The translations under genes were made by a program, and so were the position numbers. From positions 20,463-84,462 of the forward strand of contig JAJQDV010000032.1 in the NCBI GenBank assembly GCA_021202015.1: a stretch of 64,000 bases of DNA, read 5' to 3'. Of the stretch, positions 4,865 through 49,707 are shown in pieces. Numbering within the stretch: the stretch's first letter is position 1; every line of letters starts with the position of its first letter. The DNA comes from Clostridiales bacterium (lineage in GTDB: Bacteria > Bacillota > Clostridia > Lachnospirales > Lachnospiraceae). A model generated the notes under the pieces. It saw only the letters and a list, made by a program, of their open reading frames with translations. It was not told where the DNA came from and ran no database searches.

Positions 4865-5332
4865 ATGAACATGGCCTGGAACAGGGAAGAAATAATAAAC
4901 TACATAAAGGACAGCAGAAGTCTGGTGCTGGCGACCGTGGATGAAAACGGATTCGCGCAGCTGCGGTCAATCGGAGGGTATGGTGCGGATGGTCTGCAGG
5001 TGTATTTCGGCACGGCAAAGACGAGCGGGAAGGTGAAACAGATTGAGCAAAACCCTCATGTCGCCCTGCTTTTTCAGCACGAGGGACAGCAGGTTCCGAA
5101 AAATGTCACGCTGTACGGAACGGCGGCTGTTCTGGGAGAGGAAGAGTTTGAATCCGGGGCAGCGGTGATTCGGGAGAGAAGGCCTCAGATTGCTTTTCAG
5201 AAAGAGGAAAGCAATCTATACAGGGTCGATGTTGAAAAAGTAAAAATACTTGATTTCGGAAGTGAGACGAAGATCAAAGAAGTCCGCGCGGAGGAACTGC
5301 GCCGGACAACGGATTCAGGAGGTTCAAAATGA
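4865..5332 (+). CDS. Pyridoxamine 5'-phosphate oxidase-like FMN-binding split-barrel protein
   Basis: LVLATVDENG..LRSI, YFGTAKTSGKVKQIEQNPHVAL pattern; stop overlaps next start (ATGA). Confidence 0.8.
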   Translation: MNMAWNREEIINYIKDSRSLVLATVDENGFAQLRSIGGYGADGLQVYFGTAKTSGKVKQIEQNPHVALLFQHEGQQVPKNVTLYGTAAVLGEEEFESGAAVIRERRPQIAFQKEESNLYRVDVEKVKILDFGSETKIKEVRAEELRRTTDSGGSK

Positions 5333-6396
5333 TAACGATGAAATGGAAAAGTATGAGCGCATTACTGCTTGCGGGAGTTGTTCTGCTTGCGGGCTGCGGC
5401 AGTTCAGACAGCGGTACAACCGCGGAAAGCGGCGGGGAGGAGGGTACGGTCAGTGTGACGGATGAGACAGCGGGCTCTACGAATGAGGAATTCACGGTAC
5501 GCGTAGGCGTAAATTCAGGAGATCAGAATTCAATTCTGAAAATTGTCGATGAGCATACCGGACTGTTCTCAGATAAAGGAATTCATCTGGAAACAACTGA
5601 ATTTGCTGCGGGAATCAATACGATCGACGCCATAGAGCTGGATCAGGTTGATATCGGACTTTTTGCCGATTATGCGGGAGTAAACAGATTCGGAAACACA
5701 TCCGGCAGCTCAGAGCTTCGTGCATTTACGCAAATGACAAAATCAGATGCATGGGATCTGTATGTCAATCCAGATGCGATTCAGAAACCGGAGGATCTGT
5801 ATGACGCCAGTCTGATTTCGTCTGCGGGTGTTGTATTCGAATATTATTATGCAAGGCTTTTTGAAGTGTATGGGCTGGATATATCAGAGGTAACACTTCA
5901 AAATGTTACAAGCACACAGGAAGCACTGGCGCTGGCGGCTGCCGGAACAGGCGATGCCTATTGGTGCAGTTCACAGACGGCTTCCCTTTTTGAAAAATAC
6001 GGATGGGAACCGTTTGTATCCATAAGTGATATAGATGCAGCCATGTACACATTTATGGTGGCCGGAGAGTCATATCTGACGGAACATAGCGACGAGGTGA
6101 TTCGTTTCCTTGAAGTAAGCGAAGAAGGATTTGAATATATTGCGGAGAATCTGGAGCAGGTTGCTCAGTGGGTAGAGGATGATCTGGGACTTGATCAGGA
6201 GCTGTTTATCAGTGATTGGGAAAGCACGGAACATGTATATGAATTTACCCAGGAAGCCTATGATGATCTGGTCAGTGTCAAGGACTGGTGCTATCAGAAC
6301 GGGAAATTTGATACGGATTTTGATATTTCTGATTTTATCAATACAGATGTATTGAAGCAGATGGATCCGGACAGAGTCACGTATACAGCAGAATAA
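5329..6396 (+). CDS. ABC transporter substrate-binding lipoprotein, SsuA/TauA/NMT1 (sulfonate/nitrate) type
   Basis: Signal peptide with lipobox LLAGC; GLFSDKGIHLETTEFAAGINTIDAIELDQVDIG resembles the SsuA-family N-terminal segment. Confidence 0.8.
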   Translation: MITMKWKSMSALLLAGVVLLAGCGSSDSGTTAESGGEEGTVSVTDETAGSTNEEFTVRVGVNSGDQNSILKIVDEHTGLFSDKGIHLETTEFAAGINTIDAIELDQVDIGLFADYAGVNRFGNTSGSSELRAFTQMTKSDAWDLYVNPDAIQKPEDLYDASLISSAGVVFEYYYARLFEVYGLDISEVTLQNVTSTQEALALAAAGTGDAYWCSSQTASLFEKYGWEPFVSISDIDAAMYTFMVAGESYLTEHSDEVIRFLEVSEEGFEYIAENLEQVAQWVEDDLGLDQELFISDWESTEHVYEFTQEAYDDLVSVKDWCYQNGKFDTDFDISDFINTDVLKQMDPDRVTYTAE

Positions 6397-19066: not shown

Positions 19067-20314
19067 GTGATGAAATTTAACACGACTTTGTTACACGGGA
19101 CGAAGGAAATCCCGTTTTTCGGGGATGCAGAATCGGGGGCGACTCAGCCGCCGGTCTGTCAGTCCAGCGCCTTCCGGCATACATCGGCGAAGCGCATGGA
19201 GCAGATTTTTCACAATAAAGCGCCGGGGTTTTCATATTCAAGGCTGGGAAATCCGACGGTGGAGGCATTTGAAAAGCGGATGACCGTTCTGGAGGGCGGG
19301 ATCGCCAGTGTGGCCTGCGCCTCCGGCATGGCGGCGGTTTTTAATTCGTTGATGAATATTCTGCGGGCGGGAGATGAGATTGTTTCCAGTGCCAGTTTGT
19401 ACGGCGGGACGATCGATCTGTTCCGGGAACTGAAAGCCTTCGGAATCACAGTGCATTACGTGGAAAATAATGATTGGAAAGCGTTTACGGCAAATACGAA
19501 TGAACACACCCGATGTTACTTTGCGGAAACCATCGGAAATCCCAAACTGGACGTCACGGATATCCGGTGTCTGGCAGATCTGGCTCACAGTAAGGGGTTG
19601 CCGCTTTTTGTGGATAATACAGCAGCGACGGCTTATCTTGTAAAACCGATCGAACTGGGAGCGGACATTGTTATCAATTCTACCTCCAAATATGTCAACG
19701 GCAGCAGCAATTCCATCAGCGGCGTCATCACGGATGGAGGAGGGTTTCGCTGGGATACGAAAAAATATCCGGGATTGCGCGATTTTGCGAAGTTCGGCCC
19801 ATTTGCTTATACTGTGAAGCTGCGCAACGGATTTTTTCGCAACACAGGCGGATGCCTGTCCCCGCAAAATGCGTTTTACAATATCATCGGTATGGAGACG
19901 CTGGGACTTCGGATGGAGCGGATCTCTGACAATGCGCTGGCGCTGGCGCGGTGGCTGCAAAAGGAATTTCCGGATATTACGGTAAATTATCCCGGACTGG
20001 AGACGAATCCCTGTTATGAGCTTGCAAAGGAACAGTTTGGCAGTCATTTCGGCGGGATTCTTACAATCCGCGTCGGAAGCAGGGAACGGGCCTATCGAAT
20101 TCTGGACAGTCTGAAGATTCCGCTGCAGGTGTCGAACATTGGAGATACCAAAACACTTGTGATTCACCCGGAGTCAACGCTGGCGGTGCACAGCACAGAA
20201 GAGGAGAAAGCCGCGGCGGGTGTATACGATGACCTGATCCGGGTGAGCGTCGGGATTGAGGATGCGGAGGATCTCATGAAAGATTTCGGGAGAGCAATCC
20301 GGGAAATGAAATGA
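19067..20314 (+). CDS. metY: O-acetylhomoserine aminocarboxypropyltransferase/sulfhydrylase (Cys/Met PLP family)
   Basis: YSRLGNPT, ASGMAA, ETIGNP, VDNT, NSTSKY (PLP Lys), NIGDTKTLVIHP, LIRVSVGIED. Confidence 0.8.
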   Translation: MMKFNTTLLHGTKEIPFFGDAESGATQPPVCQSSAFRHTSAKRMEQIFHNKAPGFSYSRLGNPTVEAFEKRMTVLEGGIASVACASGMAAVFNSLMNILRAGDEIVSSASLYGGTIDLFRELKAFGITVHYVENNDWKAFTANTNEHTRCYFAETIGNPKLDVTDIRCLADLAHSKGLPLFVDNTAATAYLVKPIELGADIVINSTSKYVNGSSNSISGVITDGGGFRWDTKKYPGLRDFAKFGPFAYTVKLRNGFFRNTGGCLSPQNAFYNIIGMETLGLRMERISDNALALARWLQKEFPDITVNYPGLETNPCYELAKEQFGSHFGGILTIRVGSRERAYRILDSLKIPLQVSNIGDTKTLVIHPESTLAVHSTEEEKAAAGVYDDLIRVSVGIEDAEDLMKDFGRAIREMK

Positions 20315-25471: not shown

Positions 25472-25577
25472 TTTTCGGAAAACAAGAATCGAAAAGATCT
25501 TCTATATTGTAGCAGTGTCGTATCGGAATGTAAATAGCGTTTTTGTTCTGAAAAAGGAACAGTTGCGGTATACCGGA

Positions 25578-25705
25578 TTTTTTATCTCATAGGAAAGTTC
25601 GTCCTATGAGATAAAAAACGCTCCGCGGGGATGCACAGCTCGCGGATAGGAAATTTTGCGATGCAACCGCTCGCGCGCGAAGTGTCGCAAGCGACACTTT
25701 ATTTT
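25578..25705 (+). repeat. Dispersed multi-hairpin intergenic element, copy B
   Basis: 17-bp perfect stem TTTTTTATCTCATAGGA/TCCTATGAGATAAAAAA, then CGCTCCGC..GGATGCACA.., terminal hairpin AAGTGTCGC-AA-GCGACACTT, then TATTTT. Confidence 0.85.
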
Positions 25706-25725
25706 CAGCTTCGCGAGTTTACAAG

Positions 25726-25754
25726 TTGACAAAATGAAATCCGTAATTTATGAT
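25726..25754 (+). promoter_or_regulatory. Sigma-A promoter of fabH
   Basis: TTGACA-17 bp-TATGAT. Confidence 0.7.
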
Positions 25755-25827
25755 TAAATGAACGCAAGTGACACATTTATCACTTCGCGTCCTGAATATT
25801 TTTAAACAGATATAACTGGAGGACTGT

Positions 25828-26793
25828 ATGAGAGCACAGATCATCGGAACCGGAAGCTGTCTGCCGGAGAAAATAGTGACAAACGATTTCCTGTCCACCA
25901 TTGTTGACACGAGTGATGAGTGGGTCAGCAGCCGAACGGGGATTCGGGAGAGGCATGTTTCCATTGAGGAGACTACAGTTTCATTGTCCGCGGAGGCGGG
26001 ACGGCGGGCCATGGACATGGCGGGAATCCGGGCGGAGGAACTGGATCTGATCATTGTCGCGACCTGTACGGCGGATACGCTGGTTCCGAGCACGGCCTGT
26101 CTGGTTCAGGACGAGCTGGGCGCGGTGCGGGCAACGGCTTTTGATATCAACGCGGCCTGTTCCGGTTTCGTGTTTGCGCTCAATCTCGCGGATGTCTATA
26201 TGCAGACAGGCACGTACCGGACGGCGCTGGTGATCGGCGCGGAGACGCTCTCCCGCATTGTTGACTGGAAGGATCGGACGACCTGTGTGCTTTTTGCGGA
26301 CGGCGCAGGCGCGGCGGTCGTGCGTGCGGCCGAGACGGGTGTCTCCGTGTCAACGCTCGGCAGTGACGGGAGCCGCGGCGGCGCGATTTATGTAAAAAGC
26401 AGGGAGAATTATAATCCTTTCGTCCCGGAGCAGAAGCCCATGGATTTCTTATATATGGACGGCGGGGAAGTTTTCAAATTCGCGGTGAAAAAGATCCCGG
26501 AGGCTATCCTGGAGACGCTCGGCAAGGCGGGTCTTACCGTGGATGATATCGACTGGTTCCTGCTGCACCAGGCGAACGCACGCATCAATCAGGTCATTGC
26601 GAAGAAGCTGAAGATTTCCATCGACAGGGTGCCGATGAATGTGGATCACTGCGGCAATACCTCAGGGGGGAGCGTGCCGATTCTTCTTGACGAGGTGAAC
26701 CGGAAGGGTCTGTTGAAATCCGGAGACCGGATTGTCTTTGCGGGCTTCGGTTCAGGTCTGACCTGGGGGGTAATGGTCCTGACCTGGGCATAA
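25828..26793 (+). CDS. fabH: 3-oxoacyl-ACP synthase III
   Basis: RTGIRER, AFDINAACSGF (catalytic Cys), LHQAN, CGNTS. Confidence 0.95.
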   Translation: MRAQIIGTGSCLPEKIVTNDFLSTIVDTSDEWVSSRTGIRERHVSIEETTVSLSAEAGRRAMDMAGIRAEELDLIIVATCTADTLVPSTACLVQDELGAVRATAFDINAACSGFVFALNLADVYMQTGTYRTALVIGAETLSRIVDWKDRTTCVLFADGAGAAVVRAAETGVSVSTLGSDGSRGGAIYVKSRENYNPFVPEQKPMDFLYMDGGEVFKFAVKKIPEAILETLGKAGLTVDDIDWFLLHQANARINQVIAKKLKISIDRVPMNVDHCGNTSGGSVPILLDEVNRKGLLKSGDRIVFAGFGSGLTWGVMVLTWA

Positions 26794-26927
26794 AACATTA
26801 GGTTGCTTTTCATTTTAAACTGTGTTATACTCTGACGTGGAATGCGGAAAGCCGATATGAAAACGTCCTGATTCATCCGATGTTTCTTCTGATTCGGCAA
26901 TCTTATTCGGAAAGGAGCGGTTGTGTC

Positions 26928-27068
26928 GTGAAACATGTAAAGACTTTACATACAAAGAGATTACAGAGCACGGTGAAAAAGGGCGGTTGCGGCGAATGCC
27001 AGACATCCTGCCAGTCTGCGTGCAAGACTTCCTGTACTGTTGGCAACCAGAGCTGTGAGAAGAAATAG
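26928..27068 (+). CDS. scfA: SCIFF (six-cysteine-in-45) ranthipeptide precursor
   Basis: GTG start after AAGGAG; MKHVKTL..KKGGCGECQTSCQSACKTSCTVGNQSCE. Confidence 0.96.
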   Translation: MKHVKTLHTKRLQSTVKKGGCGECQTSCQSACKTSCTVGNQSCEKK

Positions 27069-27186
27069 AGAGTGATATTTACATATGAATGATCAGGCCG
27101 TATGCCGGAATGCATGCGGTCAATTTGTTGCGCGGGAGCGCGAATGGAAAATTCACTTTAGATAAGGTATTTTAAGCGAGGCGTTC

Positions 27187-28560
27187 ATGGTTCACCAGTA
27201 TAAAAACAACGGTTATAATATTGTCCTCGATGTGAACAGCGGCTCGATTCATGTGGTAGATGACATTTCCTATGAGATTATCGCCATGTATGAGGATCAC
27301 TCGAGGGAGGAGATCCTCCGCTCCCTGTCCGCTTTCGGACCGGAGGAGGAGTTGGCTGAGGCGTACGACGAGATTCGGGAGCTGGCTGAGGACGGTCAGC
27401 TTTTTACGGAGGATGAGTATGAGCCTTATCTCTCGGATTTTAAAAATCGCCCTACGGTGGTGAAGGCGCTCTGCCTTCACATCGCGCATGACTGCAATCT
27501 GTCCTGCCGATACTGTTTTGCCCAGGAGGGCGAGTATCACGGACGCCGGGATCTGATGAGTTTTGAGGTGGGCAGACGCGCGCTGGATTTTCTGATCGCG
27601 AATTCCGGCAACAGACGGAATCTCGAAGTGGATTTCTTCGGCGGCGAGCCTCTTATGAACTGGGACGTTGTCAGGGAGCTTGTGGCCTACGGGCGGGAGC
27701 AGGAGAAGATCCATGACAAGAATTTCCGTTTCACCCTGACGACAAACGGCGTTCTCCTGGATGATGAGATCATGGAGTTCGCGAACCGTGAGATGGCGAA
27801 TGTGGTCCTGAGTATCGACGGCCGGAAGGAAGTCAACGATCACATGCGTCCGTTCCGCGGGGGACAGGGCAGCTACGACCGGATCGTACCGAAGTTTCAG
27901 AGGTTTGCGGAGAGCAGACATCAGGACAGGTATTATGTCCGGGGTACCTATACGCATTATAATCTTGATTTTTCCGAGGATGTGCTCCATCTGGCCGATC
28001 TGGGATTCCGGCAGATTTCCGTGGAACCGGTGGTGGCGGAGGACTCGCAGGCCTATGCGCTGCGGGAGGAGGATCTGCCGACGCTGTTTGCGGAGTATGA
28101 TAAGCTTGCGGCGGAGATGGTCAGGCGGAAAAACGAGGGCGGAGATTTTAATTTCTTTCATTTTATGATCGATCTGGAGGGCGGTCCCTGTGTGGCGAAG
28201 CGCCTGTCGGGGTGCGGTTCCGGGACGGAGTATCTGGCGGTGACGCCGTGGGGGGATCTGTATCCCTGTCATCAGTTTGTCGGGAATGAACGCTTTCGGA
28301 TGGGAAATGTGTGGGACGGTGTGGTCCGCACGGATATCAGGGATGCGTTTCAGTCCTGCAATGTCTATGCGAAGGAAAAGTGCCGGAGCTGTTTTGCGAG
28401 GTTCTACTGCAGCGGGGGCTGTGCCGCGAATTCCTATCATTTCCACGGGCATATCAACGATGCGTATGACATTGGCTGCGAGCTGCAGAAAAAGCGGATT
28501 GAATGCGCGATCATGATCCGGGCTGCCGAGGCGCAGTCGGAATCCTTTTATGAGAAATAA
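27187..28560 (+). CDS. scfB: SCIFF radical SAM/SPASM thioether maturase
   Basis: CLHIAHDCNLSCRYC, FFGGEP, GCGSGTEY, YPCHQF, CRSCFARFYCSGGC; adjacent to scfA. Confidence 0.95.
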   Translation: MVHQYKNNGYNIVLDVNSGSIHVVDDISYEIIAMYEDHSREEILRSLSAFGPEEELAEAYDEIRELAEDGQLFTEDEYEPYLSDFKNRPTVVKALCLHIAHDCNLSCRYCFAQEGEYHGRRDLMSFEVGRRALDFLIANSGNRRNLEVDFFGGEPLMNWDVVRELVAYGREQEKIHDKNFRFTLTTNGVLLDDEIMEFANREMANVVLSIDGRKEVNDHMRPFRGGQGSYDRIVPKFQRFAESRHQDRYYVRGTYTHYNLDFSEDVLHLADLGFRQISVEPVVAEDSQAYALREEDLPTLFAEYDKLAAEMVRRKNEGGDFNFFHFMIDLEGGPCVAKRLSGCGSGTEYLAVTPWGDLYPCHQFVGNERFRMGNVWDGVVRTDIRDAFQSCNVYAKEKCRSCFARFYCSGGCAANSYHFHGHINDAYDIGCELQKKRIECAIMIRAAEAQSESFYEK

Positions 28561-28648
28561 GGACGTCATTATATTCAGACAAAAGAAACATGTGACGAAA
28601 AGGGGCCGATCGTTGCAGTGTGAATAAATTTTGGAGGTAAAGGACACA

Positions 28649-30883
28649 ATGAAGAAAAGGAAATCATCAGTAGTGGTCTTTATTATAATGATCGCTATTG
28701 TGGCATTGCTGGGATATTACACGTTCGGCATCGTTAAGGGTACCGTGGCGAAGGACAGCGATGCCGGCATTAAGCTGGGTCTGGATCTGGCCGGCGGCGT
28801 GAGTATCACGTATCAGGTTGCCGGGGACGAGGATCCCACTTCGGAGGAAATGTCGGATACGATCTATCAGCTTCAGCAGCGTGTCAGCGCTTACAGCACG
28901 GAGGCTGAGGTATATCAGGTCGGCGACGACCGGATCACGGTGGAGATCCCTGGCGTGTCGGACGCGAACGAGATTCTTTCAGAGCTCGGTTCTCCCGGTT
29001 CTCTGGAGTTCCAGACTCCGGACGGAGAGGTCTATATGACCGGCGAATATGTGGCGGACGCGCAGGCGACGACGACCACGAACTCCACGACCGGCGTGAC
29101 GTCCTACTGCGTGGAACTGACGCTGACCAGTGAAGGCGCGGAGATCTTCGCGGAGTATACGGAGGAGTATCTCAACGATTACCTGCCGATCTATTATGAC
29201 GGCGAATGCATCACCTATCCCGAGGTACAGTCGGTCATCTCAAACGGTGTGGCGGAGATCACCGGCATGGACAGCTATGAGGACGCTGAGATCCTGGCGA
29301 CGCAGATCCGAAGCGGCGCGCTGACGCTGGAGCTTGAGGAGCTGCAGTCTGAGGTGGTGGGCGCAAAGCTCGGTTCCCAGGCGTTGAACACCAGCATTAT
29401 CGCTGCCATGATCGGTATTCTGATCATCATCATCTTTATGTTGATCGCATACCGGATTCCCGGTCTGGCGGCGGCTCTCGCGCTGCTGATCTATGCCGGT
29501 ATCCTGCTTTCCATCCTGCATCTGTATCACATTACGCTGACGCTGCCGGGCATCGCGGGTATCATCCTGTCCATCGGTATGGCGGTCGATGCGAATGTCA
29601 TTATCTTTGCCCGTATCCGGGAGGAGATCGGCGCCGGAAAGAGTGTTGATACGGCGATCAAAACCGGTTTCAAAAAAGCGTTTTCCGCGATCCTGGACGG
29701 CAACGTTACGACGCTGATCGCGGCGGTCGTATTGTATCTGCGGGGTACGGGTTCGATTCGCGGATTCGCGATCACGCTGGCGCTCGGTATTATTTTCTCC
29801 ATGTTCACCGCACTGGTGATCACCCGTCTGCTGCTGAGAGCCCTGTACGGCATGGGCTGTAAGGATAAAAAGCTTTACGGCGAGAAGAAGCAGAGAGAGC
29901 CGATCAACTTTCTCGGAAAGCGTTTCATCTGCATCGGTATTTCGGTGGCGGTCATTGTGGCCGGATTTATCGGGATGGGCGCTTATAAGGCCGGAAGCGG
30001 CAATGTGCTGAATTTCAGTCTGGAGTTTATGGGCGGTACCTCCACAACGGTTACGTTTGATACGGATTATACGATCGAAGAGATTGATGAGGAGATTGTT
30101 CCTTATATAGAGGAAGTGACCGGCGACAGCAATGTCCAGACCCAGAAGGTTTCCGACAGCACGGATGTGATCTTCAAGACACGTACGCTGTCCCTTGACG
30201 AGAGAGAGGAGCTCGTATCGACGCTGGAGGAGAACTTCGGTGTGACAGAGGACGACATCTCCGAGTCGCAGAACATCAGCTCCACGATCAGCAGCGAGAT
30301 GAGACAGGATGCGATCTGGGCCGTGATCATAGCGACGATCTGCATGCTGATCTATATCTGGTTCCGGTTCAAGGATATCCGGTTCGCGGGCAGCGCGGTC
30401 ATCGCCCTGGTTCACGATGTACTGATCGTGCTGGCGTTCTACGCGTTGTCGCGGACAAGCGTAGGCACGACGTTTATCGCCTGTATGCTGACGCTGGTCG
30501 GTTATTCGATCAACGCGACGATCGTCATCTTTGACCGTATCCGTGAGAATATGGCGCTGGAGGCGGGCAACCGCAGCCCGGATCTGAAGCGCGTGGTGAA
30601 CAACAGTATCACGCAGACGCTCTCGCGAAGTATCAATACTTCCCTGACGACCTTTATCATGGTATTTATGATCTTCCTGCTGGGCGTATCTTCCATCCGG
30701 GAGTTCACCGGTCCTCTGATGATCGGCGTGGTCTGCGGCGCGTACTCATCCGTCTTCCTGACCGGGTCGATCTGGTATATGATGAAGAACCGGTCGCTGA
30801 AGAAACAGCAGGCGCAGATCGAGGCGGCGAAGGCAGCGAAATCATCAAAGAAGAAAAAGAAAGCACAATCGGAAAAAGAATAA
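28649..30883 (+). CDS. secDF: Fused protein translocase subunit SecDF
   Basis: LGLDLAGGVS, GMAVDANVIIFARIREE, LEFMGGT, GYSINATIVIFDRIREN. Confidence 0.95.
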   Translation: MKKRKSSVVVFIIMIAIVALLGYYTFGIVKGTVAKDSDAGIKLGLDLAGGVSITYQVAGDEDPTSEEMSDTIYQLQQRVSAYSTEAEVYQVGDDRITVEIPGVSDANEILSELGSPGSLEFQTPDGEVYMTGEYVADAQATTTTNSTTGVTSYCVELTLTSEGAEIFAEYTEEYLNDYLPIYYDGECITYPEVQSVISNGVAEITGMDSYEDAEILATQIRSGALTLELEELQSEVVGAKLGSQALNTSIIAAMIGILIIIIFMLIAYRIPGLAAALALLIYAGILLSILHLYHITLTLPGIAGIILSIGMAVDANVIIFARIREEIGAGKSVDTAIKTGFKKAFSAILDGNVTTLIAAVVLYLRGTGSIRGFAITLALGIIFSMFTALVITRLLLRALYGMGCKDKKLYGEKKQREPINFLGKRFICIGISVAVIVAGFIGMGAYKAGSGNVLNFSLEFMGGTSTTVTFDTDYTIEEIDEEIVPYIEEVTGDSNVQTQKVSDSTDVIFKTRTLSLDEREELVSTLEENFGVTEDDISESQNISSTISSEMRQDAIWAVIIATICMLIYIWFRFKDIRFAGSAVIALVHDVLIVLAFYALSRTSVGTTFIACMLTLVGYSINATIVIFDRIRENMALEAGNRSPDLKRVVNNSITQTLSRSINTSLTTFIMVFMIFLLGVSSIREFTGPLMIGVVCGAYSSVFLTGSIWYMMKNRSLKKQQAQIEAAKAAKSSKKKKKAQSEKE

Positions 30884-30890
30884 CAGGAGG

Positions 30891-30917
30891 GACCCGGTGG
30901 AAAAGCCGGGTCTTTTT
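30891..30917 (+). terminator. Intrinsic terminator after secDF
   Basis: GACCCGG-N8-CCGGGTC followed by TTTTT. Confidence 0.75.
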
Positions 30918-31054
30918 CACCATATAGGAAAGTTCTTCGAACTTCCTATATGATAAAAAACGCTCCGCTGTGGATGCACATGCCGCGCAAAGGAAGATGT
31001 TTGCTTACGCAAACGCGCGGCAGCGCAGGAATCCCGCAAGCGGGATTCTATTTT
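30913..31054 (+). repeat. Dispersed multi-hairpin intergenic element, copy C
   Basis: Near-identical to copy D; hairpins CATATAGGAAAGTTC/GAACTTCCTATATG, GTTTGC-TTAC-GCAAAC, GAATCCCGC-AA-GCGGGATTC. Confidence 0.9.
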
Positions 31055-31077
31055 AACATAAAGGAAGGGGGACCGGT

Positions 31078-31221
31078 ATGAATTTACTGCATTCGGGCAT
31101 CCTGTTTTTGTGGGATTTGTCCAGGTCGTTTTTCGGAACCGTGTTTGTCGCGTGCGTTCTGATGAGCTTTGTCCTGTTTCTGGCGGAACTGGTCATTTAT
31201 CACGCGAAGAAAACAAATTAA
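31078..31221 (+). CDS. Candidate 47-aa single-pass membrane protein (absent from ORF track)
   Basis: AAGGAAGGGG RBS; MNLLHSGILFLWDLSRSFFGTVFVACVLMSFVLFLAELVIYHAKKTN. Confidence 0.6.
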   Translation: MNLLHSGILFLWDLSRSFFGTVFVACVLMSFVLFLAELVIYHAKKTN

Positions 31222-31233
31222 GGGAAAAGAGGG

Positions 31234-32022
31234 ATGATTATGCGGATTGCGTTGATCACGGGTGCATCCAGCGGCCTTGGGAAAACGTTCGCGCAGCACA
31301 TTGACGATTCGGAGAGGGAGATCGATGAGATCTGGCTGGTGGCAAGGCGCAGGGAACGGCTGGAGGAGGTCGCACGGCAGCTGTCCCATCCGGCGAAGAT
31401 CATCGCGCTGGATCTGGTCGCGGAAGGCAGCATGGAGGAGCTGGAGGATCTGCTGAAAGAAAATGTTCAGGTGGGTCTGTTTGTCAACTGCGCGGGCTAT
31501 GCCAAGATCGGAAATTATGAGAAAGTAAGCCGCGCGGATTCGGAGCGGATGATCGATTTAAACTGCCGGGCGGCGGTAAGCACGACCCTTGCGGTTCTCC
31601 CCTTTATGCGGGCCGGAGACCGGATCATGGAGATCTGCTCCACCTCGTCCTTTCAGCCGATCCCGCATCTGAATATCTACGCGGCGAGCAAGGCCTTTCT
31701 GTACAGCTACACGCGGGCGCTGCGGATGGAGCTCCTGCCGCGCGGGATCATAGTGACGGCCGTCTGTCCCTGGTGGGTGAAGGATACGGAGTTTATCTCC
31801 GTCGCCCGGGACAACCGCGCCAACGCGGATGTGGCGGATTCGATCCGCGGCTTTCCCCTGGCGACCAGGCAGGAGGATGTCGTAAGGCGGGCGCTGCGCG
31901 ACAGTCGTCTGAAGCTGGCGGTGTCGACGCCCGGCGTCATGTGCTTTTTTCACCGGATCTTCGCGAAAGTCATTCCGCGGAAGTGGCTGCTGTATTTCTG
32001 GGAAATCTTCCGCCGGATCTGA
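31234..32022 (+). CDS. Short-chain dehydrogenase/reductase
   Basis: ITGASSGLG, VNCAGY, YAASK catalytic motif. Confidence 0.93.
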   Translation: MIMRIALITGASSGLGKTFAQHIDDSEREIDEIWLVARRRERLEEVARQLSHPAKIIALDLVAEGSMEELEDLLKENVQVGLFVNCAGYAKIGNYEKVSRADSERMIDLNCRAAVSTTLAVLPFMRAGDRIMEICSTSSFQPIPHLNIYAASKAFLYSYTRALRMELLPRGIIVTAVCPWWVKDTEFISVARDNRANADVADSIRGFPLATRQEDVVRRALRDSRLKLAVSTPGVMCFFHRIFAKVIPRKWLLYFWEIFRRI

Positions 32023-32370
32023 CGCCGCGGAAATTATGTGTTACATGTCACTCCCTGACTACGCACTTGCTGCGGGGTCAGGCCGAACACGTTGTGGTTT
32101 CAGGCATCCGTCCCATCGCGAAGCGATTTTGCATGGACGGATGCTGTTGCAAGTCACATCCTGTAAGGATTACAAAGCATAAATTCGGTGAAGATGTGAC
32201 TTGTAACAATTTTGTCATGAAATGTTTGCAGTTGCCATGTATCCTGTGGTAAGATAGAACCTGCGGAATGATAAATGTAACTTACCGGAAGTTCACGGCG
32301 CTTGCGGCAGGGGACTTCGTAAGTTAAAGAGCAGCCGGTTTTGCTGCGAGTTCAGAAAGGATGTGTGATT

Positions 32371-32913
32371 ATGCCGCTGCTGAAAGAAAAAGTTTATACG
32401 ATCGATGATATTTATGCCTTACCGGACGGACAGAGGGCAGAGCTGATCGACGGACAGATTTATGATATGGCGCCTCCGAATCGGAGACATCAGTACCTTA
32501 TTTCGGAATTACATTATCAGATTAAAGATTATATCAGGCGAAAGGGAGGTCCTTGCGAGGTGTATCCCGCTCCGTTTGCCGTGAAATTAAATGCCGACGA
32601 CAGAACATACGTTGAACCGGACATCTCTGTGATCTGTGATTCGAAAAAGCTGACGGAGAAGGGCTGCACGGGTGCGCCGGACTGGATTATTGAGGTGGTC
32701 TCTCCGAGTAGCATACGGATGGATTATTCCGTAAAGCTTTTTAAATACCGCACGGCAAGAGTCCGGGAATACTGGATCGTCGATCCGGATAAAAACCGGA
32801 TCATGCTTCACGACCTGGAGGAGGATAATATGGAGGAGTATACATTTTCGGACACTGTGAAAGCGGGTATTTACGATGATCTGATCATTGATTTTTCCGA
32901 ATTGCATCTTTGA
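32371..32913 (+). CDS. Uma2-family (PD-(D/E)XK) endonuclease
   Basis: RAELIDGQIYDMAPP..HQ, VEPDISVICD, GAPDWIIEVVSPS, EYWIVDP. Confidence 0.92.
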   Translation: MPLLKEKVYTIDDIYALPDGQRAELIDGQIYDMAPPNRRHQYLISELHYQIKDYIRRKGGPCEVYPAPFAVKLNADDRTYVEPDISVICDSKKLTEKGCTGAPDWIIEVVSPSSIRMDYSVKLFKYRTARVREYWIVDPDKNRIMLHDLEEDNMEEYTFSDTVKAGIYDDLIIDFSELHL

Positions 32914-32950
32914 TATAAAAAAGAAACCGGGACGGAGGATTTGAGAGAAC

Positions 32951-34051
32951 ATGAAACTTGGAATTGTGGGGCTCCCGAATGTCGGGAAGAGTACGCTGTT
33001 TAATTCGCTTACGAAAGCGGGCGCGGAGTCGGCCAACTATCCATTCTGCACGATCGACCCGAATGTCGGGATCGTGGCGGTGCCAGATGAACGTATCCGG
33101 CTGTTGGGCGACATGTACCATTCGAAAAAGGTGACGCCGGCCGTGATCGAGTTCGTGGATATTGCCGGCCTTGTGAAGGGCGCCAGCAAAGGCGAGGGGC
33201 TGGGGAACCAGTTTCTGGCGAACATCCGCGAGGTGGACGCTATCGTCCATGTGGTACGGTGCTTTGAGGATGAGAATGTTGTCCATGTGGACGGCAGCGT
33301 GGATCCGGCGCGGGACATTGAGACGATCAATCTGGAGCTGATCTTTTCGGATATTGAGATCCTGGAGCGCAGGCTTGCGAAGGTGGGACGGACGGCCCGC
33401 ATGGATAAGAAGGCGGCGAAGGAGGAGGATCTGGTCAAAAGGATCGTGAGCCATCTGGAGGACGGGAAACCGGCAAAGACCTTTGCGGTCGGGGATGATG
33501 AAGACGAACAGGGATGGTTTTCTTCCTACAATCTTTTGACGGCGAAGCCGGTCATTTATGCGGCGAATGTCTCCGAGGACGATCTGGCGGACGACGGAGC
33601 GTCGAACGCTTATGTGCAGTCCGTTCGTGAACTGGCGGCGCGGGAAGGCAGCGAGGTGTTTGCTCTCTGTGCGAGCATCGAAGCCGAGATGGCGGAGCTG
33701 GACGATGAGGAGCGGGCGATGTTTCTCGAGGAGCTCGGTATCCGGCAGTCCGGTCTGGAGAAACTGATTCAGGCAAGCTACAGTCTGCTCGGGCTGATGA
33801 GCTTCCTGACCGCGGGCGAGGATGAGACCCGTGCCTGGACGATCCGGAAGGGAACGAAAGCGCCGCAGGCGGCCGGAAAGATACATACGGATTTTGAGCG
33901 TGGATTTATCCGCGCGGAGGTGGTCAACTACAAGGATCTTCTGGAGTGCGGCTCTCTGGCGGCGGCGCGGGAGAAGGGAATTGTCGGCCTTGAGGGGAAG
34001 GATTATGTTGTCCGGGACGGGGATGTGATCCTGTTCCGTTTTAATGTATAA
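32951..34051 (+). CDS. ychF: Redox-regulated ATPase YchF
   Basis: GIVGLPNVGKSTLFN, NYPFCTIDPN, DIAGLVKGASKGEGLGNQFL. Confidence 0.98.
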   Translation: MKLGIVGLPNVGKSTLFNSLTKAGAESANYPFCTIDPNVGIVAVPDERIRLLGDMYHSKKVTPAVIEFVDIAGLVKGASKGEGLGNQFLANIREVDAIVHVVRCFEDENVVHVDGSVDPARDIETINLELIFSDIEILERRLAKVGRTARMDKKAAKEEDLVKRIVSHLEDGKPAKTFAVGDDEDEQGWFSSYNLLTAKPVIYAANVSEDDLADDGASNAYVQSVRELAAREGSEVFALCASIEAEMAELDDEERAMFLEELGIRQSGLEKLIQASYSLLGLMSFLTAGEDETRAWTIRKGTKAPQAAGKIHTDFERGFIRAEVVNYKDLLECGSLAAAREKGIVGLEGKDYVVRDGDVILFRFNV

Positions 34052-34104
34052 CGGCGCTTTCACACTGTGCGGAGAAACGCATAGAATGAAAAAAAAGGAT
34101 TTTT

Positions 34105-34359
34105 ATGCGCTTTTCAGAATTTTCTAAAAAAGAGGTTGTCAATATTTCCGATGGAAAATGCCTGGGCTGTGTCAGTGACATACAGTTCGATGAATGCCGG
34201 GATCAGATTCAGGCAATTATCATCCGGGGACCGGCGAAATGGTTCCATGCCATCGGCTGCGACAGCGAGTACATTGTGGCCTGGGATCGGATCGTCCGGA
34301 TCGGACCGGACGTCATCCTGGTGGAGGTTTGCGTCGATCAGGTGCTGAAGAAACTGTAA
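34105..34359 (+). CDS. YlmC/YmxH-family PRC-barrel sporulation protein
   Basis: KEVVNISDGKCLGCVSDI, IVAWDRIVRIGPDVILV. Confidence 0.88.
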   Translation: MRFSEFSKKEVVNISDGKCLGCVSDIQFDECRDQIQAIIIRGPAKWFHAIGCDSEYIVAWDRIVRIGPDVILVEVCVDQVLKKL

Positions 34360-34383
34360 TTGGAAAAAACCGGAGGATACATT

Positions 34384-34845
34384 ATGAAATGCCCATACTG
34401 CAGCAGCGATAATACGCGCGTGATCGATTCGCGCCCCGTGGACGACAATACAGCGATCCGACGCCGACGGAACTGCGACGACTGCGGGCGGCGCTTTACC
34501 ACCTTTGAAAAGGTGGAGACGATTCCGTTGATGATTATCAAAAAGGATAATACCAGGGAACGCTACGACCGCTCGAAGATTGAGGACGGCGTCCTGCGCG
34601 CCTGCCATAAACGCCCGGTCTCCGCGGAGCAGATCGGGAAACTGGTGGATGAGGTGGAGACGGAGATCTACAGCAGGGCGGACCGGGAGATCCCCAGCAG
34701 TGACATCGGAGAGCTTGTCATGGATAAGCTGAAGGATCTGGAGGCGGTCGCCTATGTCCGATTTGCCTCTGTGTATCGTGAATTCAAGGATGTGAATACT
34801 TTTGTAAATGAGCTGAAGAAAATGTTGGACAGCGAGGATAAATAG
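34384..34845 (+). CDS. nrdR: Transcriptional repressor NrdR
   Basis: MKCPYC..DSRP..RRRRNCDDCGRRFTTFE; VAYVRFASVYREF. Confidence 0.97.
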   Translation: MKCPYCSSDNTRVIDSRPVDDNTAIRRRRNCDDCGRRFTTFEKVETIPLMIIKKDNTRERYDRSKIEDGVLRACHKRPVSAEQIGKLVDEVETEIYSRADREIPSSDIGELVMDKLKDLEAVAYVRFASVYREFKDVNTFVNELKKMLDSEDK

Positions 34846-34848
34846 CCG

Positions 34849-35388
34849 ATGTTTCAGAAGTTTTATCCCGACATTTACGTGGAGTCCGCTTACGAGATCG
34901 ATTTTGACAGCCTCTATGCGGACGGCTACCGCGGACTGATCTTTGACATTGACAATACGCTCGTGACACACGGAGCGCCCGCGAATGATCAGGCAAGGGC
35001 GCTGTTTGCGCATCTGAAGGAGCTGGGATTTGAATGCTGCCTGCTTTCCAACAACAAGGAACCGCGCGTGAAGATGTTCAATGAGGATGTTCAGGTACAT
35101 TATATCTGCGAGGCGCACAAGCCGTCCGCGGATAATTACGAAAAAGCCATGGAGCTGATGCATACGGATAAAAGCACCACCCTCTTTATCGGTGATCAGA
35201 TTTTTACGGATATTTTCGGCGCGAACCGGGCGGGCATACCGTCCGTCATGGTAAAATACATATACTGGAAAGAAGAAATCCAGATCGTCTTCAAACGAAG
35301 GCTTGAAGCGATCATATTATTATGTTATCGTAGATACAGGAAAAAGAACAGGACCGCGGCAAGAGGGGCGTTTTTCGGGAATCCCTGA
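34849..35388 (+). CDS. yqeG: YqeG-family HAD IIIA phosphatase
   Basis: DIDNTL, LSNN, IGDQIFTDIFGANRAG. Confidence 0.88.
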   Translation: MFQKFYPDIYVESAYEIDFDSLYADGYRGLIFDIDNTLVTHGAPANDQARALFAHLKELGFECCLLSNNKEPRVKMFNEDVQVHYICEAHKPSADNYEKAMELMHTDKSTTLFIGDQIFTDIFGANRAGIPSVMVKYIYWKEEIQIVFKRRLEAIILLCYRRYRKKNRTAARGAFFGNP

Positions 35389-35417
35389 TCCGGTTCAGAA
35401 ACAGAGAGGAAATACAG

Positions 35418-35849
35418 ATGAAGATTTTGATAGCGAACGACCACGCGGCAGTCGATCTGAAAATGGAGGTGAAGGCTTACCTGGAGGGGCTCGGGCACGA
35501 GATCGTCGATGTCGGGGCGATGGAGAAGAAAAGTTGTCACTATCCGGAGATCGGCGCGCGCGCCGGCCGCATGATAGCTGCGGGCGAGGCGGACTGCGGT
35601 GTGCTGATGTGCGGCACGGGAGCCGGGATCGCCATGGCTGCGAATAAGATTAAAGGTATTCGCGCGGTGGCCTGCTCGGAGCCGGTGACGGCGCGGCTGG
35701 CGAAGGAACACAACCACGCGAATATCATCGCGTTCGGCGAACGGATCATCGGCGTGGAGATGGCGAAGGCGATCCTGGACGCCTGGCTGAATGCCGAATG
35801 CCTGGAAGGGCGGCATCAGCTGCGGGCGGACATGCTCGACGCACTGTAG
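35418..35849 (+). CDS. rpiB: RpiB/LacAB-family sugar-phosphate isomerase
   Basis: ANDHAA, CGTGAGIAMAANKIKGIRA, EHNHANII, GRHQLR. Confidence 0.9.
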   Translation: MKILIANDHAAVDLKMEVKAYLEGLGHEIVDVGAMEKKSCHYPEIGARAGRMIAAGEADCGVLMCGTGAGIAMAANKIKGIRAVACSEPVTARLAKEHNHANIIAFGERIIGVEMAKAILDAWLNAECLEGRHQLRADMLDAL

Positions 35850-35917
35850 GATTGATAAGCTGGTTTGCCACAACGTGACGGCAGGCGAAGCGGGCGGACA
35901 TGCTCGACGCGCTGTAG
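35822..35917 (+). repeat. 28-bp direct duplication of the rpiB 3' end
   Basis: GCGGGCGGACATGCTCGACGC(A/G)CTGTAG at 35822-35849 and 35890-35917. Confidence 0.9.
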
Positions 35918-36041
35918 AATCGTCGGGCGGATGAGATTCACAGGAAAAAGTGGTTGAAATATCGCCTGATTTCATATAGAATAGTTTCAATACACCGGTG
36001 TGTCGTCTCACGCCACACCAGAATACGAGGAGGATTTGAAA

Positions 36042-36602
36042 ATGGCAGATGCAGGCAGCGTGATCAAAAAGGGAGTCACGATCGAGCTGGAGGGAAAAGT
36101 ATACAGAGTGGAGGATTTCCAGCATGTAAAACCGGGCAAGGGAGCCGCTTTTATCCGGACGAAGTTAAAGGATGTGATCAACGGCGGAGTCGTGGAGAAG
36201 TCCTTCCGTCCCGCGGAGAATGTCGATACGGCGCATGTTGAGAGAACCGTGAAGCAGTATCTGTATAAGGATGATGATTTTTATCATTTCATGGACGCGG
36301 AGACTTATGACCAGATCGATATGACGCACGAGGATGTAGAGGAGGAGATGAAGTTCGTCAAGGAGAATGAGAACGTGACGATGCTCTCTCATAACGGCAA
36401 GATCTTCGCGGTGGAGCCCCCGCTGTTTGTGGAGCTTGATATCATTGATACCGAGCCCGGCTTCAAGGGCAATACAGCCACCGGTACGTTCAAGCCGGCT
36501 ACGGTGGAGACCGGAGCGGTCGTCCAGGTTCCTCTGTTTGTCAACCAGGGTGACAAGATCAAGATCGATACGAGGACCGGGGAGTATCTCTCCAGGGTAT
36601 AA
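36042..36602 (+). CDS. efp: Translation elongation factor P
   Basis: [40 protein letters not shown]. Confidence 0.97.
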
Positions 36603-36644
36603 GGCTGATACAGGGACAGGGTGCGCAGGAGATGTGTCACCCTG

Positions 36645-36788
36645 TTTTTTATCATATAGGAAAGTTCTCCGAACTTTCCTATATGATAAAAAACGCTCCG
36701 CTGTGGATGCACATGCCGCGCAAAGGGAGATGTCTGCTTACGCAGACGCGCGGCAGCGCGGGAATCCCGCGAAGCGGGATTCTATTTT
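36645..36788 (+). repeat. Dispersed multi-hairpin intergenic element, copy D
   Basis: Perfect 23-bp stem (36645-36693), GTCTGC-TTAC-GCAGAC, GAATCCCGC-GAA-GCGGGATTC; starts in the T-run of the efp terminator. Confidence 0.9.
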
Positions 36789-36794
36789 ATTAAT

Positions 36795-37868
36795 ATGGAA
36801 CATTTTGATTTGAGAAAAACAATACAAGAATATACGGAGCAGATCTCTCCGCCGGATGAAACGGCCATGGCGCAGAGCCGCCGCCGCTGGGACAGCCTTG
36901 CGAAACCGCTGGGCAGTCTCGGCAGGCTGGAGGAGGCGGTCACGCAGATCGCCGGCATTCAGGGCACGCCGGAGATCAGCATTGACAGAAAAGCGCTCGT
37001 CATTATGTGCGCGGATAACGGCGTAGTCGGGGAGGGCGTTTCACAGTGCGGACAGGAGGTAACAGCCACCGTCGCGGAGAATTTTTCGGAAGGAAAATCC
37101 TGCGTTTCCATCATGTGTCAGAAAACCGGAACGGATATTTTTCCGGTTGATATCGGGATGGCGGCGGATACGCCGCGGACGGAAAAGCGCAAGATCGCGT
37201 ACGGCACGCGGAATATGGCGCGGGAAGCCGCCATGACGCGGCGGCAGGCGGAGGATGCCATACATGTGGGCATTCAAAAAGCCTGTGAACTGAAGGAGTC
37301 CGGCTATCAGATCCTGGCGACCGGTGAGATGGGTATCGGAAATACCACGACCGGAAGCGCTGTCACGGCGGTCCTGCTCGATGTCCCGGTCGAGGAGGTA
37401 ACCGGGCGGGGCGCCGGACTTTCCTCTGAGGGACTGGAGAGAAAGATTCAGGTCATCAAACAGGCGATTCGCATGAACCGGCCGGATCCGGCTGACCCGC
37501 TGGAAGTTTTGGCAAAGGTCGGCGGACTGGATATCGCGGGAATGGCCGGCTGTTTTATCGGCGGGGCGTACTGCGGGCTGCCGGTTGTGATCGACGGACT
37601 TATCTCATCCGCCGCCGCGCTGATCGCCGTTCGGCTGGCGCCCGCGTGCGCGCCGTATCTCCTGGCTTCCCATGTCTCAAAGGAACCCGCGGCGAAGCTG
37701 CTTCTGTCGGAATTAAAAAAAGACGCTTTTCTGACCTGCGAGATGGGTCTCGGCGAGGGGAGCGGCGCGGTGGCGCTGTTTCCGCTGCTGGATCTGGCGG
37801 CGGAGGTGTATCGTAAAATGAGTGATTTTGAGGCGGCGGGGATTGAGGCGTATGAAAAGAAGCGTTAA
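36795..37868 (+). CDS. cobT: Nicotinate-nucleotide--dimethylbenzimidazole phosphoribosyltransferase
   Basis: KPLGSLGRLE, ADNGV, GEMGIGNTT, VGGLDIA, MGLGEGSGA. Confidence 0.96.
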   Translation: MEHFDLRKTIQEYTEQISPPDETAMAQSRRRWDSLAKPLGSLGRLEEAVTQIAGIQGTPEISIDRKALVIMCADNGVVGEGVSQCGQEVTATVAENFSEGKSCVSIMCQKTGTDIFPVDIGMAADTPRTEKRKIAYGTRNMAREAAMTRRQAEDAIHVGIQKACELKESGYQILATGEMGIGNTTTGSAVTAVLLDVPVEEVTGRGAGLSSEGLERKIQVIKQAIRMNRPDPADPLEVLAKVGGLDIAGMAGCFIGGAYCGLPVVIDGLISSAAALIAVRLAPACAPYLLASHVSKEPAAKLLLSELKKDAFLTCEMGLGEGSGAVALFPLLDLAAEVYRKMSDFEAAGIEAYEKKR

Positions 37869-49634: not shown

Positions 49635-49707
49635 GGAGATATAGCTCAGCTGGGAGAGCATCTGCTTGACGTGTAGAGGGTCACAGGTTCGAGTCCTGCT
49701 ATCTCCA
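49635..49707 (+). tRNA. tRNA-Val (anticodon GAC)
   Basis: GGAGATA/TATCTCC acceptor stem, TAGCTCAGCTGGGAGAGC D-arm, TCTGC-TTGACGT-GTAGA anticodon arm, GGTTCGAGTCC T-arm; promoter TTGACA-17-TAAAGT at 49558; CCA not encoded. Confidence 0.93.

Follow-up and report, generated by a model that had tools for sequence, protein, structure and literature searches.

An apparently undescribed family of protein-free, terminator-homing elements in Lachnospiraceae

Three copies of a multi-hairpin repeat lie between genes in a 64,000-nucleotide stretch from a Clostridiales bacterium of the Lachnospiraceae (assembly GCA_021202015.1, contig JAJQDV010000032.1, positions 20,463–84,462 of the forward strand; this whole stretch is the window below). 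They raise the question of whether such a repeat is mobile DNA or a structured RNA and, if it moves, what guides it to its sites. A first-pass annotation of the window had proposed either a non-autonomous element mobilised as single-stranded DNA (ssDNA) by an HUH enzyme or an undescribed structured RNA motif. Our analysis points to a real, widespread Lachnospiraceae family of structured, terminator-homing, non-autonomous elements of 120–140 bp, which are protein-free and apparently undescribed. The element is mobile DNA, with discrete and oriented insertion, proliferation in genomes and decay.

The repeat and its family

The copies share one order of modules. A target T-run plus one base is followed by P1, a long hairpin that in every case carries AYAGGAAA, then by T, C or G and an A-run, the core CGCTCCGC-N1-4-GGATGCACA, P2, a GCGC linker, the hairpin P3 and a T-rich tail. 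P2 has an outer stem whose internal loop (ARAGGWA...) is purine-rich and asymmetric, and it is capped by a small GC hairpin. The architecture described in the first pass (a long first stem, the CGCTCCGC..GGATGCACA linker, a nested GC stem with a small hairpin, a last hairpin and a T-rich tail) is therefore correct, and the three compensatory pairs quoted there for the window copies are real. The covariance model R1, trained on 11 copies that all come from other genomes, recovered the three full copies independently at the same places on the plus strand when the window was scanned with filters off (98.7, 100.7 and 107.9 bits for copies A, C and D, E 7e-21 to 6e-23). The sole further significant match was a truncated relic on the minus strand (36.6 bits, compared with 19.3 on the plus strand). 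The copies, their targets and the relic are as follows.

25585–25706, plus strand: copy A, full element, 122 nt (98.7 bits, E 7e-21; fold z −6.3); P1 hairpin 25585–25611, guide-like TAAAAAA 25612–25618, core CGCTCCGCGGGGATGCACA 25619–25637, P2 25638–25674, GCGC linker 25675–25678, P3 25679–25699, tail TATTTTC 25700–25706
25578–25584, plus strand: target-side TTTTTTA (T-run plus A), which abuts copy A and is complementary to the element's TAAAAAA
30920–31055, plus strand: copy C, full element, 136 nt (100.7 bits; 3′ end uncertain by about 3 nt); P1 30920–30953, guide-like TAAAAAA 30954–30960, core 30961–30980, P2 30981–31022, linker 31023–31027, P3 31028–31048, tail TATTTTA 31049–31055
30891–30919, plus strand: target of copy C, the secDF intrinsic terminator (hairpin 30891–30912) with T-tract TTTTTCA
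36652–36789, plus strand: copy D, full element, 138 nt (107.9 bits); P1 36652–36686, guide-like TAAAAAA 36687–36693, core 36694–36713, P2 36714–36755, linker 36756–36760, P3 36761–36782, tail TATTTTA 36783–36789
36616–36651, plus strand: target of copy D, the efp intrinsic terminator (hairpin 36616–36645) with T-tract TTTTTTA
4735–4792, minus strand: relic consisting of P1 and the first ~13 nt of the core (AAGAAACGCTTCC), 36.6 bits

Identity between copies C and D is 91–96%, according to the stretch chosen, and that of A to either of them is about 72–75%; all three can be aligned over the full length. Folding of each copy on either strand against dinucleotide-preserving shuffles gave z-scores from −5.4 to −9.4, with 0 of 200 shuffles reaching the observed value. 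Copies C and D follow directly on the terminator T-runs of secDF and efp, within which the first-pass annotation had placed their start, and the cobT start codon follows copy D at 36795. Upstream of the T-run of copy A there is nothing but a weak CGGTATACCG palindrome; by analogy with the empty thrS site described below, the TTTTTTA before this copy is probably target-derived. The relic overlaps an open reading frame (ORF) of the plus strand at 3428–4765 and supplies its last 31 nt, including the TAG stop codon; an old insertion has therefore remodelled the 3′ end of that gene. The GCGAAGC mini-hairpin and the TTAC loop, earlier singled out in the window copies, proved incidental: they are rare variants, found in 4 and 3 of 106 copies, respectively, and were rejected as family features.

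An exact scan of one genome per species with the pattern AAAACGCTCCGC-N1-4-GGATGCAC gave at least 117 loci from at least about 55 assemblies, and nearly all of the matches listed belong to Lachnospiraceae. Among the matches listed are Roseburia, Butyrivibrio, Anaerostipes, Anaerocolumna, Cuneatibacter, Mediterraneibacter, [Clostridium] aminophilum and many metagenome-assembled genomes (MAGs) from human, mouse, rumen, horse and deer, as well as two Planctomycetes loci (L014, L102) that have no element around the core match and look like chance. Loci L030 and L036 (labelled Bacteroidaceae) and L077 (labelled Thermoguttaceae) carry typical Lachnospiraceae-type copies, that of L077 being close to the Roseburia copies; mis-binning or contamination is the probable cause, not spread beyond Lachnospiraceae.

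R1 matches at E < 1e-11 gave a family alignment of 106 copies from 100 sources. In this alignment 95.1% of the cells are standard-paired, compared with 29–52% when the partners are slid by 1–3 columns, and all 34 modelled pairs have changed on both sides; the observed values were reached by 0 of 500 shuffles. The invariance of the core is partly a matter of ascertainment, because the exact scan demanded it. Extra copies found by the model have a second core type, AAAAGCCCTCCGGGCAGGATCGCAC, and a mini-hairpin that covaries between CGC-TCC-GCG and GCCC-TCC-GGGC. Some subfamilies have additional hairpins, placed either behind the core or between P2 and P3, and others a longer P1 that holds an inner hairpin. 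Divergent subfamilies, with another core (GCCCTCCGGGCAGGATCGCAC) or with the CGC-TCC-GCG mini-hairpin replaced by a long hairpin, were seen at L112:2591–2736, L112:3998–4143, L023:4284–4416, L039:1844–2011 and L047:5524–5679. As the exact pattern is blind to them, the family is bigger than the locus count suggests.

With Rfam 15 at gathering thresholds, the only match in the whole window was a tRNA at 49635–49707, and an E-value scan of 36500–36900, around copy D, gave only sub-threshold miRNA-type hairpin noise on P1; a known RNA family was rejected by both scans. Literature searches found no described Lachnospiraceae repeat of this type. Of the outcomes that the first pass had named as refuting its proposal (a match to a known Rfam family or insertion-sequence end, or few further copies and no presence/absence polymorphism), none was observed. 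Searches of 2.9 million viral contigs (IMG/VR) and of PLSDB plasmids gave no copy, and carriage by phages or plasmids was rejected on this ground.

Insertion behind terminators

Mobility is seen most directly in the T-box leader of thrS. In the MAG JAZLJJ (locus L049) this leader is filled and reads ...CAGCGGGGCTTTTTTTA[TCTCATAGG...GATATGCTTTGTTC]TTTTACCGGGC..., with the element in brackets (in shorter form, GGGGCTTTTTTTA[129 nt]TTTTACCGGGC). The independent assembly L127, whose ThrS is 98% identical, has the empty leader ...CAGCGGGGCTTTTTTTATTTTACCGGGCC... (in shorter form, GGGGCTTTTTTTATTTTACCGGGCC), and L132 (ThrS 99% identical) has the same unbroken junction with one T changed to C (...GGGGCTTTTTTCATTTTACCGGGCC...). 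The insertion point, marked by a slash, lies in the empty allele at ...TTTTTTTA/TTTTACC..., where the filled allele adds exactly 129 bp; the site is also empty in four more relatives (ThrS 91–93% identical). The target is neither duplicated nor lost, and the A before the element is already present in the empty site. The element ends TCTCATAGG... and ...CTTTGTTC are unrelated to each other, without terminal inverted repeats (TIRs). The lack of TIRs and of target duplication that had been claimed for the window copies is upheld by the copy alignment and by this pair, and the two hallmarks of a classical MITE (miniature inverted-repeat transposable element), TIRs and a target-site duplication (TSD) of fixed length, are both missing.

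JAZLJJ contributes 36 copies to the alignment, with a median identity of 94% and with flanks that are only about 52% identical, which is the random level; the first-pass expectation of many copies per genome holds for this related MAG. Several of its copies stand head to tail with a period of 128–130 nt, and the junctions within these arrays vary by 0–2 nt. In three relatives of the window organism (L124–L126, FabH 84–92% identical) that keep the gene order CNNM...fabH-SCIFF-rSAM-secDF...SDR, there is no full copy in 21 kb of synteny. Beyond the secDF terminator hairpin, which is the same, their sequence is TTTTCCAA(T/C)CTG (also given as GGGTCTTTTCCAA(T/C)CTG), where the window has TTTTTCA and the element; this is the empty left junction for copy C. 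The clean 129-bp thrS pair, the 36 copies with unrelated flanks and the relatives that lack copies bear out the earlier proposal of a non-autonomous mobile element, and they supply the comparison of empty sites in relatives, in the form of the thrS polymorphism and of the copies missing over 21 kb. The terminator behind PPDK gave no second filled/empty pair, the downstream regions not being homologous, and exact-protein look-ups for secDF and the SDR gene returned no records.

Decay is visible at the efp-cobT site, which exists in three states among strains with identical EF-P: a full copy in the window, P1 with part of the core in L118, L120 and L122, and half of P1 only in L119 and L121. Copies thus decay by deletion and are dispensable. 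The efp terminator of the window is also present in these strains (L118–L122).

Some rearrangements were seen near the copies. In L118 (1822–2927), and also in L120 and L122, a gene for a Fic-domain protein of 260 aa, bounded by GGAGTCAGACCCCG / GGGGTCAGACCCCG repeats, lies between efp and cobT, and behind it an efp-type terminator and the truncated element copy are kept. L126, otherwise free of copies in this region, has at 19083–19162 an internally deleted copy in which P1 is joined directly to a P3 nearly identical to that of copy A (AAGTGTCGC...GCGACACTT); an A-type subfamily is therefore common to these species. L124–L126 have an Amidase_3/SPOR gene upstream of fabH and, between secDF and the small membrane ORF/SDR gene, genes for DUF1294 and an alpha/beta-hydrolase. 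The window is without these genes exactly at copies A and C (25472–25827 and 30884–31233 compared with L124–L126), which may reflect recombinational deletion between copies or independent gain in the relatives.

The sites taken by the element belong to one class. We scored a site as a terminator target when a T-run of at least 4 lay within 12 nt before P1 and an upstream hairpin had a free energy of −8 kcal/mol or lower. Such a target precedes 79 of the 101 copies with enough flank (78%), compared with 3.0% of random positions in the same loci. The T-run is on the same strand and 5′ of P1 in all copies; the flank profile shows T in 81–97% over six positions, then A (63) or G (23), and the family tail after P3 is TT[G/C]TT[C/A]. 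Insertion in one orientation, without duplication, into terminator T-tracts is well supported.

The targeted hairpins include mRNA terminators, the T-box attenuators before valS (L015), trpE (L028) and thrS (L049), a tRNA-operon terminator (L114) and a terminator downstream of a cobalamin riboswitch (L040). In L015, Rfam places the T-box before valS at 4928–5175 and the element starts from 5189. The leader copies stand between the attenuator terminator and the start codon, in full before thrS (L049:1–330) and as P1 and core only before valS (L015:4928–5330) and trpE (L028:1930–2115). Insertion within leaders of essential genes shows a target preference and not mere survival in harmless places. 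P3 with its tail resembles a terminator itself: copy D passes a terminator scan, A and C fail, and the family tail amounts to a weak U-tract. That the thrS leader of JAZLJJ contains a full copy speaks against efficient termination by P3. In L040, no ORF of at least 90 aa lies between the cobalamin riboswitch (5207–5378, 103 bits) and the element at 5675–5820; the stretch 5263–5650 has contig depths of ~39–390 in four RNA runs, each above that of the neighbouring gene.

Structured RNA as an alternative

The same hairpins could belong to a structured RNA, namely, a cis-acting leader or attenuator, a 3′ untranslated region (3′UTR) element or a small RNA, serving as terminator back-up, as protection from RNases or as a decoy for CsrA or another GGA-binding protein. 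We consider this quite improbable, although the stems covary around strongly conserved unpaired nucleotides, the variant cores have a covarying mini-hairpin (CGC-UCC-GCG / GCCC-UCC-GGGC), each copy has three GGA motifs, P3 with the tail resembles an intrinsic terminator, and mouse-gut metatranscriptome contigs contain pieces of the element. It should be noted that strong hairpin covariation alone does not indicate a functional RNA. An RNA under selection normally has a clear excess of G:U pairs on its own strand. Among the stem mismatches of the plus strand, however, G:T-type pairs (59) do not exceed A:C-type pairs (68), and there is no asymmetry. Moreover, about 10% of P3 loops are TT, the reverse complement of the usual AA, and such inversion is the behaviour of DNA palindromes.

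The position of copy A is also at odds with an RNA role, as two sites on either side of it indicate.

25726–25754, plus strand: fabH promoter TTGACA-17-TATGAT, 20 nt 3′ of copy A (11/12 match in the promoter scan; kept in the element-free relatives L124–L126)
25534–25506, minus strand: divergent promoter-like site near copy A

Lying between divergent promoters, copy A is in neither a 5′UTR nor a 3′UTR; it stands upstream of the fabH −35/−10 elements and not, as a riboswitch or attenuator would, between promoter and start codon. Most copies lie behind a terminator, where little transcription arrives, and the genes downstream are unrelated housekeeping genes, some of them convergent. The absence of an Rfam match, the full, half-deleted or nearly lost copies at one site in strains with identical EF-P, and the close relatives without copies also speak against an RNA function. 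The metatranscriptome contigs over L040 break at the repeat, are unstranded and may hold DNA, so these mouse-gut data are uninformative. The structured-RNA reading of the first pass is thus disfavoured by the place of copy A, by the pairing statistics and by the decay of copies between strains.

Narrower versions of an expressed element were examined and rejected. No sigma-70 promoter was predicted within the window copies, and candidate hexamers are not conserved. A small ORF in P2 (with a Shine–Dalgarno-like AGAGGAAAAATG) varies in start codon and reading frame between copies. As for a riboswitch or T-box-like leader of aminoacyl-tRNA synthetase genes, these cases are insertions behind genuine T-box terminators. 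Statistics of gene orientation around the copies were crude and too noisy for use, and the window organism was nearly absent from public sequencing runs.

Target pairing and mobilisation

The P1 helix extends into the flank. The first flank base (position −1) forms a Watson–Crick pair with the base just 3′ of P1 (position +1) in 77 of 104 copies, with 10 further wobbles; the expectation is 48.7 of 104, and 0 of 2000 shuffles reached the observed number. The second flank base also pairs above expectation, and beyond it the T-run faces the A-run. In other species, an internal CAAAAAC pairs with flank TTTTTTG. For the non-tandem copies of JAZLJJ, the −1/+1 combinations are A/T (18), C/G (3), G/C (2), G/T (4), T/G (1) and T/T (1), and C/T, a mismatch, is confined to four copies that stand second in a tandem and may stem from duplication rather than insertion. 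The copies with C at +1 in L009 and L116 have a common private 1-nt insertion and hence form one lineage. In the thrS case the −1 base comes from the target, so that the complementarity is between target and element, and pairing of a target base with the base 3′ of P1 points to target choice by base pairing. Two explanations fit: an inherited guide that selects targets with wobble allowed, or templated quasi-palindrome correction after insertion.

We favour, with little more than even confidence, a protein-free terminator-homing element whose target is guided by base pairing and which is moved as ssDNA by a trans-acting HUH/Y1-type enzyme. In such a mechanism, the N′+A-run 3′ of P1 would be a built-in guide that picks a target of T-run plus N by pairing, wobble being tolerated. 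The element would move as ssDNA, and the transposase would bind the P1 and P3 hairpins and the conserved core, cut and join. After insertion, the target bases and the guide would merely lengthen P1, and the site behind a terminator, together with the terminator-like P3 and T-rich tail, would keep insertions nearly harmless. Near-harmless insertion would explain accumulation, tandem arrays and slow decay by deletion.

By analogy, the single-strand mechanism of the IS200/IS605 insertion sequences (ISs) appears to be the best fit. In IS608 and ISDra2, a tetranucleotide beside the end hairpin recognises the sites of cleavage and the target by base pairing. Like the palindrome-associated transposable elements (PATEs) of this group, our element is short and gene-less, has hairpins near both ends, lacks TIRs and, in the thrS pair, target duplication, and inserts in strict orientation 3′ of a short target that may be read by a segment beside the left-end hairpin. 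Gene-less PATE-like derivatives of IS200/IS605 are known, for example, the ISGst-like elements in Geobacillus (PMC10055086). Terminator-like sequence directly upstream of ISs, most marked for IS200/IS605, was reported by a 2026 survey (PMC13548323), and our element shares this feature. Unlike these PATEs, it has a large conserved middle module (core and P2) and a target of T-run plus one base instead of a fixed tetra- or pentanucleotide, and the sampled loci yielded neither an autonomous relative nor a Y1 TnpA whose ends match.

Several observations weigh against this mechanism. No transposase-like ORF stands downstream of any core match, full or truncated, among the matches listed, and a search for a Y1 transposase by an approximate consensus over ~950 kb of loci, which has low sensitivity, gave nothing convincing. 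As for transposase or other genes that recur beside the copies, only ABC ATPases do so. P1 and P3 are unrelated in sequence, whereas the end hairpins of IS608 are alike. In IS608 the hairpins reportedly have both guides on their 5′ side (Barabas 2008; Guynet 2009); here the guide-like segment is 3′ of the hairpin, the target abuts the hairpin directly at its 5′ side, guide and target continue one helix, and no right-end guide is evident. The −1/+1 complementarity could come from quasi-palindrome correction after insertion. There is one fully clean filled/empty pair only (thrS), the strain differences at the site of copy D reflect decay and not precise excision, and the lack of viral and plasmid copies is unusual for a promiscuous parasite. 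Mobilisation as ssDNA by an HUH enzyme, as first suggested, remains an inference: the lack of TIRs and TSD, the orientation, the end hairpins and the target pairing fit, whereas no Y1/HUH gene or autonomous parent was found in the sampled loci and the guide geometry is unlike that of IS608. In view of the missing TnpA and parent, the unlike hairpins and the odd guide geometry, we liken the element to IS200/IS605 PATEs and do not file it as a member.

A bolder and more doubtful form of the idea is that the repeat is an unrecognised guide-directed mini-transposon whose guide of 6–8 nt (N′+A-run) at the foot of P1 pairs with the T-tract of any intrinsic terminator as a "safe harbour". It might be reprogrammed by a single base and be moved by a divergent HUH enzyme or by a trans-acting reverse transcriptase (RT) or intron-like machine, as a bacterial analogue of short interspersed nuclear elements.

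RNA-guided or RT-mediated homing on its own, with the N′+A-run as exon-binding site EBS1, the T-run as an IBS1-like partner and a trans-acting RT or ribonucleoprotein copying the element in as for class C group II introns, seems unlikely to us. Robart, Seo and Zimmerly (2007) reportedly described that group IIC introns insert after a terminator hairpin and T's, in sense orientation and without duplication, with a 5′ flank that pairs with internal sequence. Our element has the same class of target, sense orientation (79/101 vs 3% for insertion after terminators), lack of TSD and flank/internal complementarity, and it tolerates G/T and T/G wobbles. Among copies not chosen by the search pattern, partial ones more often keep the terminator-proximal 5′ part (~8) than the 3′ part only (~3), as incomplete copying from a T-run primer would leave them, but this bias is not significant. 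These introns, however, are ribozymes of 0.7–2.5 kb with domains I–VI and usually an RT gene, whereas the element of 120–140 nt has no such domains and matches no group II intron or other Rfam RNA. No promoter is predicted in the window copies, copy A sits between divergent promoters, and the stems have no excess of G:U over A:C. The idea of the first pass that a RAYT (REP-associated tyrosine transposase)/TnpA or RT gene might be flanked by the element found no support in the sampled loci, where no RT-like family stood out among the recurrent neighbours, families that were not Pfam-typed except for the ABC ATPases.

A process without any dedicated enzyme, that is, template switching in replication or illegitimate recombination at a hairpin with a T-run, the hairpins being kept by quasi-palindrome correction, likewise receives a low probability from us. 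It would account for the T-rich sequence at both junctions (TTTTTTTA/...CTTTGTTC/TTTT), the tandem junctions that vary by 0–2 nt, the equal numbers of G:T and A:C mismatches (59 vs 68), the ~10% of inverted P3 loops (TT for AA), typical of DNA palindrome dynamics, and the failure to find an associated gene. However, 36 copies with precise ends and a median identity of 94% in one genome are far above what microhomology accidents would give. Conservation throughout the bacterial family, in one strand orientation, extends to the unpaired core, the asymmetric internal loop of P2 and the GCGC linker, and a passive process would not keep these. The return junction is poorly homologous (TTGTTC vs TTTTTA), and the sublineage with C at +1 and a common indel fits an inherited guide better than repeated correction.

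The favoured single-strand mechanism is compatible with a further possibility that we rate as a long shot, namely, that the repeat was once mobile and has been domesticated by its hosts in the manner of repetitive extragenic palindromes (REPs) and bacterial interspersed mosaic elements, being kept for chromosome biology as a terminator insulator or as a nucleoid or topoisomerase site. The persistence of the repeat across the family Lachnospiraceae, its confinement to chromosomes (no copies in IMG/VR contigs or PLSDB), its place behind genes and the use of P1 as an insertion target of another IS or MITE, as with REPs, are in line with this. Against it, close relatives range from 0 copies in 21 kb to 3 in 11 kb, copies decay, and no flanked RAYT-like gene was seen in the sampled loci.

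Like the REP/REPIN-RAYT systems, the element is a high-copy extragenic palindrome behind genes that forms clusters or tandems, serves as a target of other ISs and may be moved as ssDNA by a trans-acting HUH enzyme. REPs and REPINs, however, are single palindromes of 20–40 nt with a GTAG/CGTC head, usually in inverted pairs and mostly proteobacterial, whereas the element has 120–140 nt, four different hairpins, one orientation, head-to-tail arrays, no such head and no flanked RAYT in the sampled loci. REPs are reportedly insertion targets of some ISs (PMC1525189).

Two other small repeats were observed within copies. One has TIRs of ~20 bp, GATT(C/A)GGGTGTCAAAAGG, and in L062 (215–372) it is a MITE of ~160–190 bp. 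In at least 4 genomes it lies within P1, next to a duplicated 7-bp target (CTATGAT / CTCATAG), and several contigs end there; further sites are L009:703–714, L116:110–121, L001:35–46 and L090:7737–7748. P1 seems to be a preferred landing site of another transposon, in the way that REPs are for some ISs. The other, a short repeat ...TTCACTA(A/G)GCTCGAAAAAACCTCGC..., is nested between core and P2 or within P2 (L110:5771–5970, L089:3690–3916, L072:520–665, L062:84–222).

Among other intergenic repeats, BOX (pneumococcal), bcr1 (Bacillus), Correia (Neisseria) and ERIC (enterobacterial) elements are also multi-hairpin sequences of ~100–150 bp with tens to hundreds of copies and module-bearing subfamilies, and their mobilising activity may likewise act in trans. 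Correia, bcr1 and true MITEs have TIRs and target duplications, whereas our element has neither. Homing to terminator T-tracts or complementarity between flank and internal sequence is not known for any of the four, and no sequence similarity of the element to any of them was found.

Although Lachnospiraceae rank with the most abundant bacteria of gut and rumen, their small repeats are essentially uncharted. With tens of copies per genome, the element breaks assemblies, and many contigs end inside it; it also confuses the annotation of non-coding RNAs and terminators and sits in T-box leaders of essential genes. Genes of the relatives are missing from the window precisely where copies A and C lie, so that the element may promote deletions. 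Insertion into T-tracts by an element with a target-complementary segment would be a simple natural case of base-pair-programmed integration at harmless sites. If an enzyme were matched to the element, it would be a candidate for small programmable insertion tools and would explain the terminator-like sequences upstream of IS200/IS605-type elements.

The window also has repeats unrelated to the element. Direct repeats at 61225–61330 and 61559–61625 consist of two 53-nt units (85% identical) and three overlapping units with an 18-nt period, and a 42-nt repeat (83%), with copies 68 nt apart, lies upstream of efp at 35811–35920.

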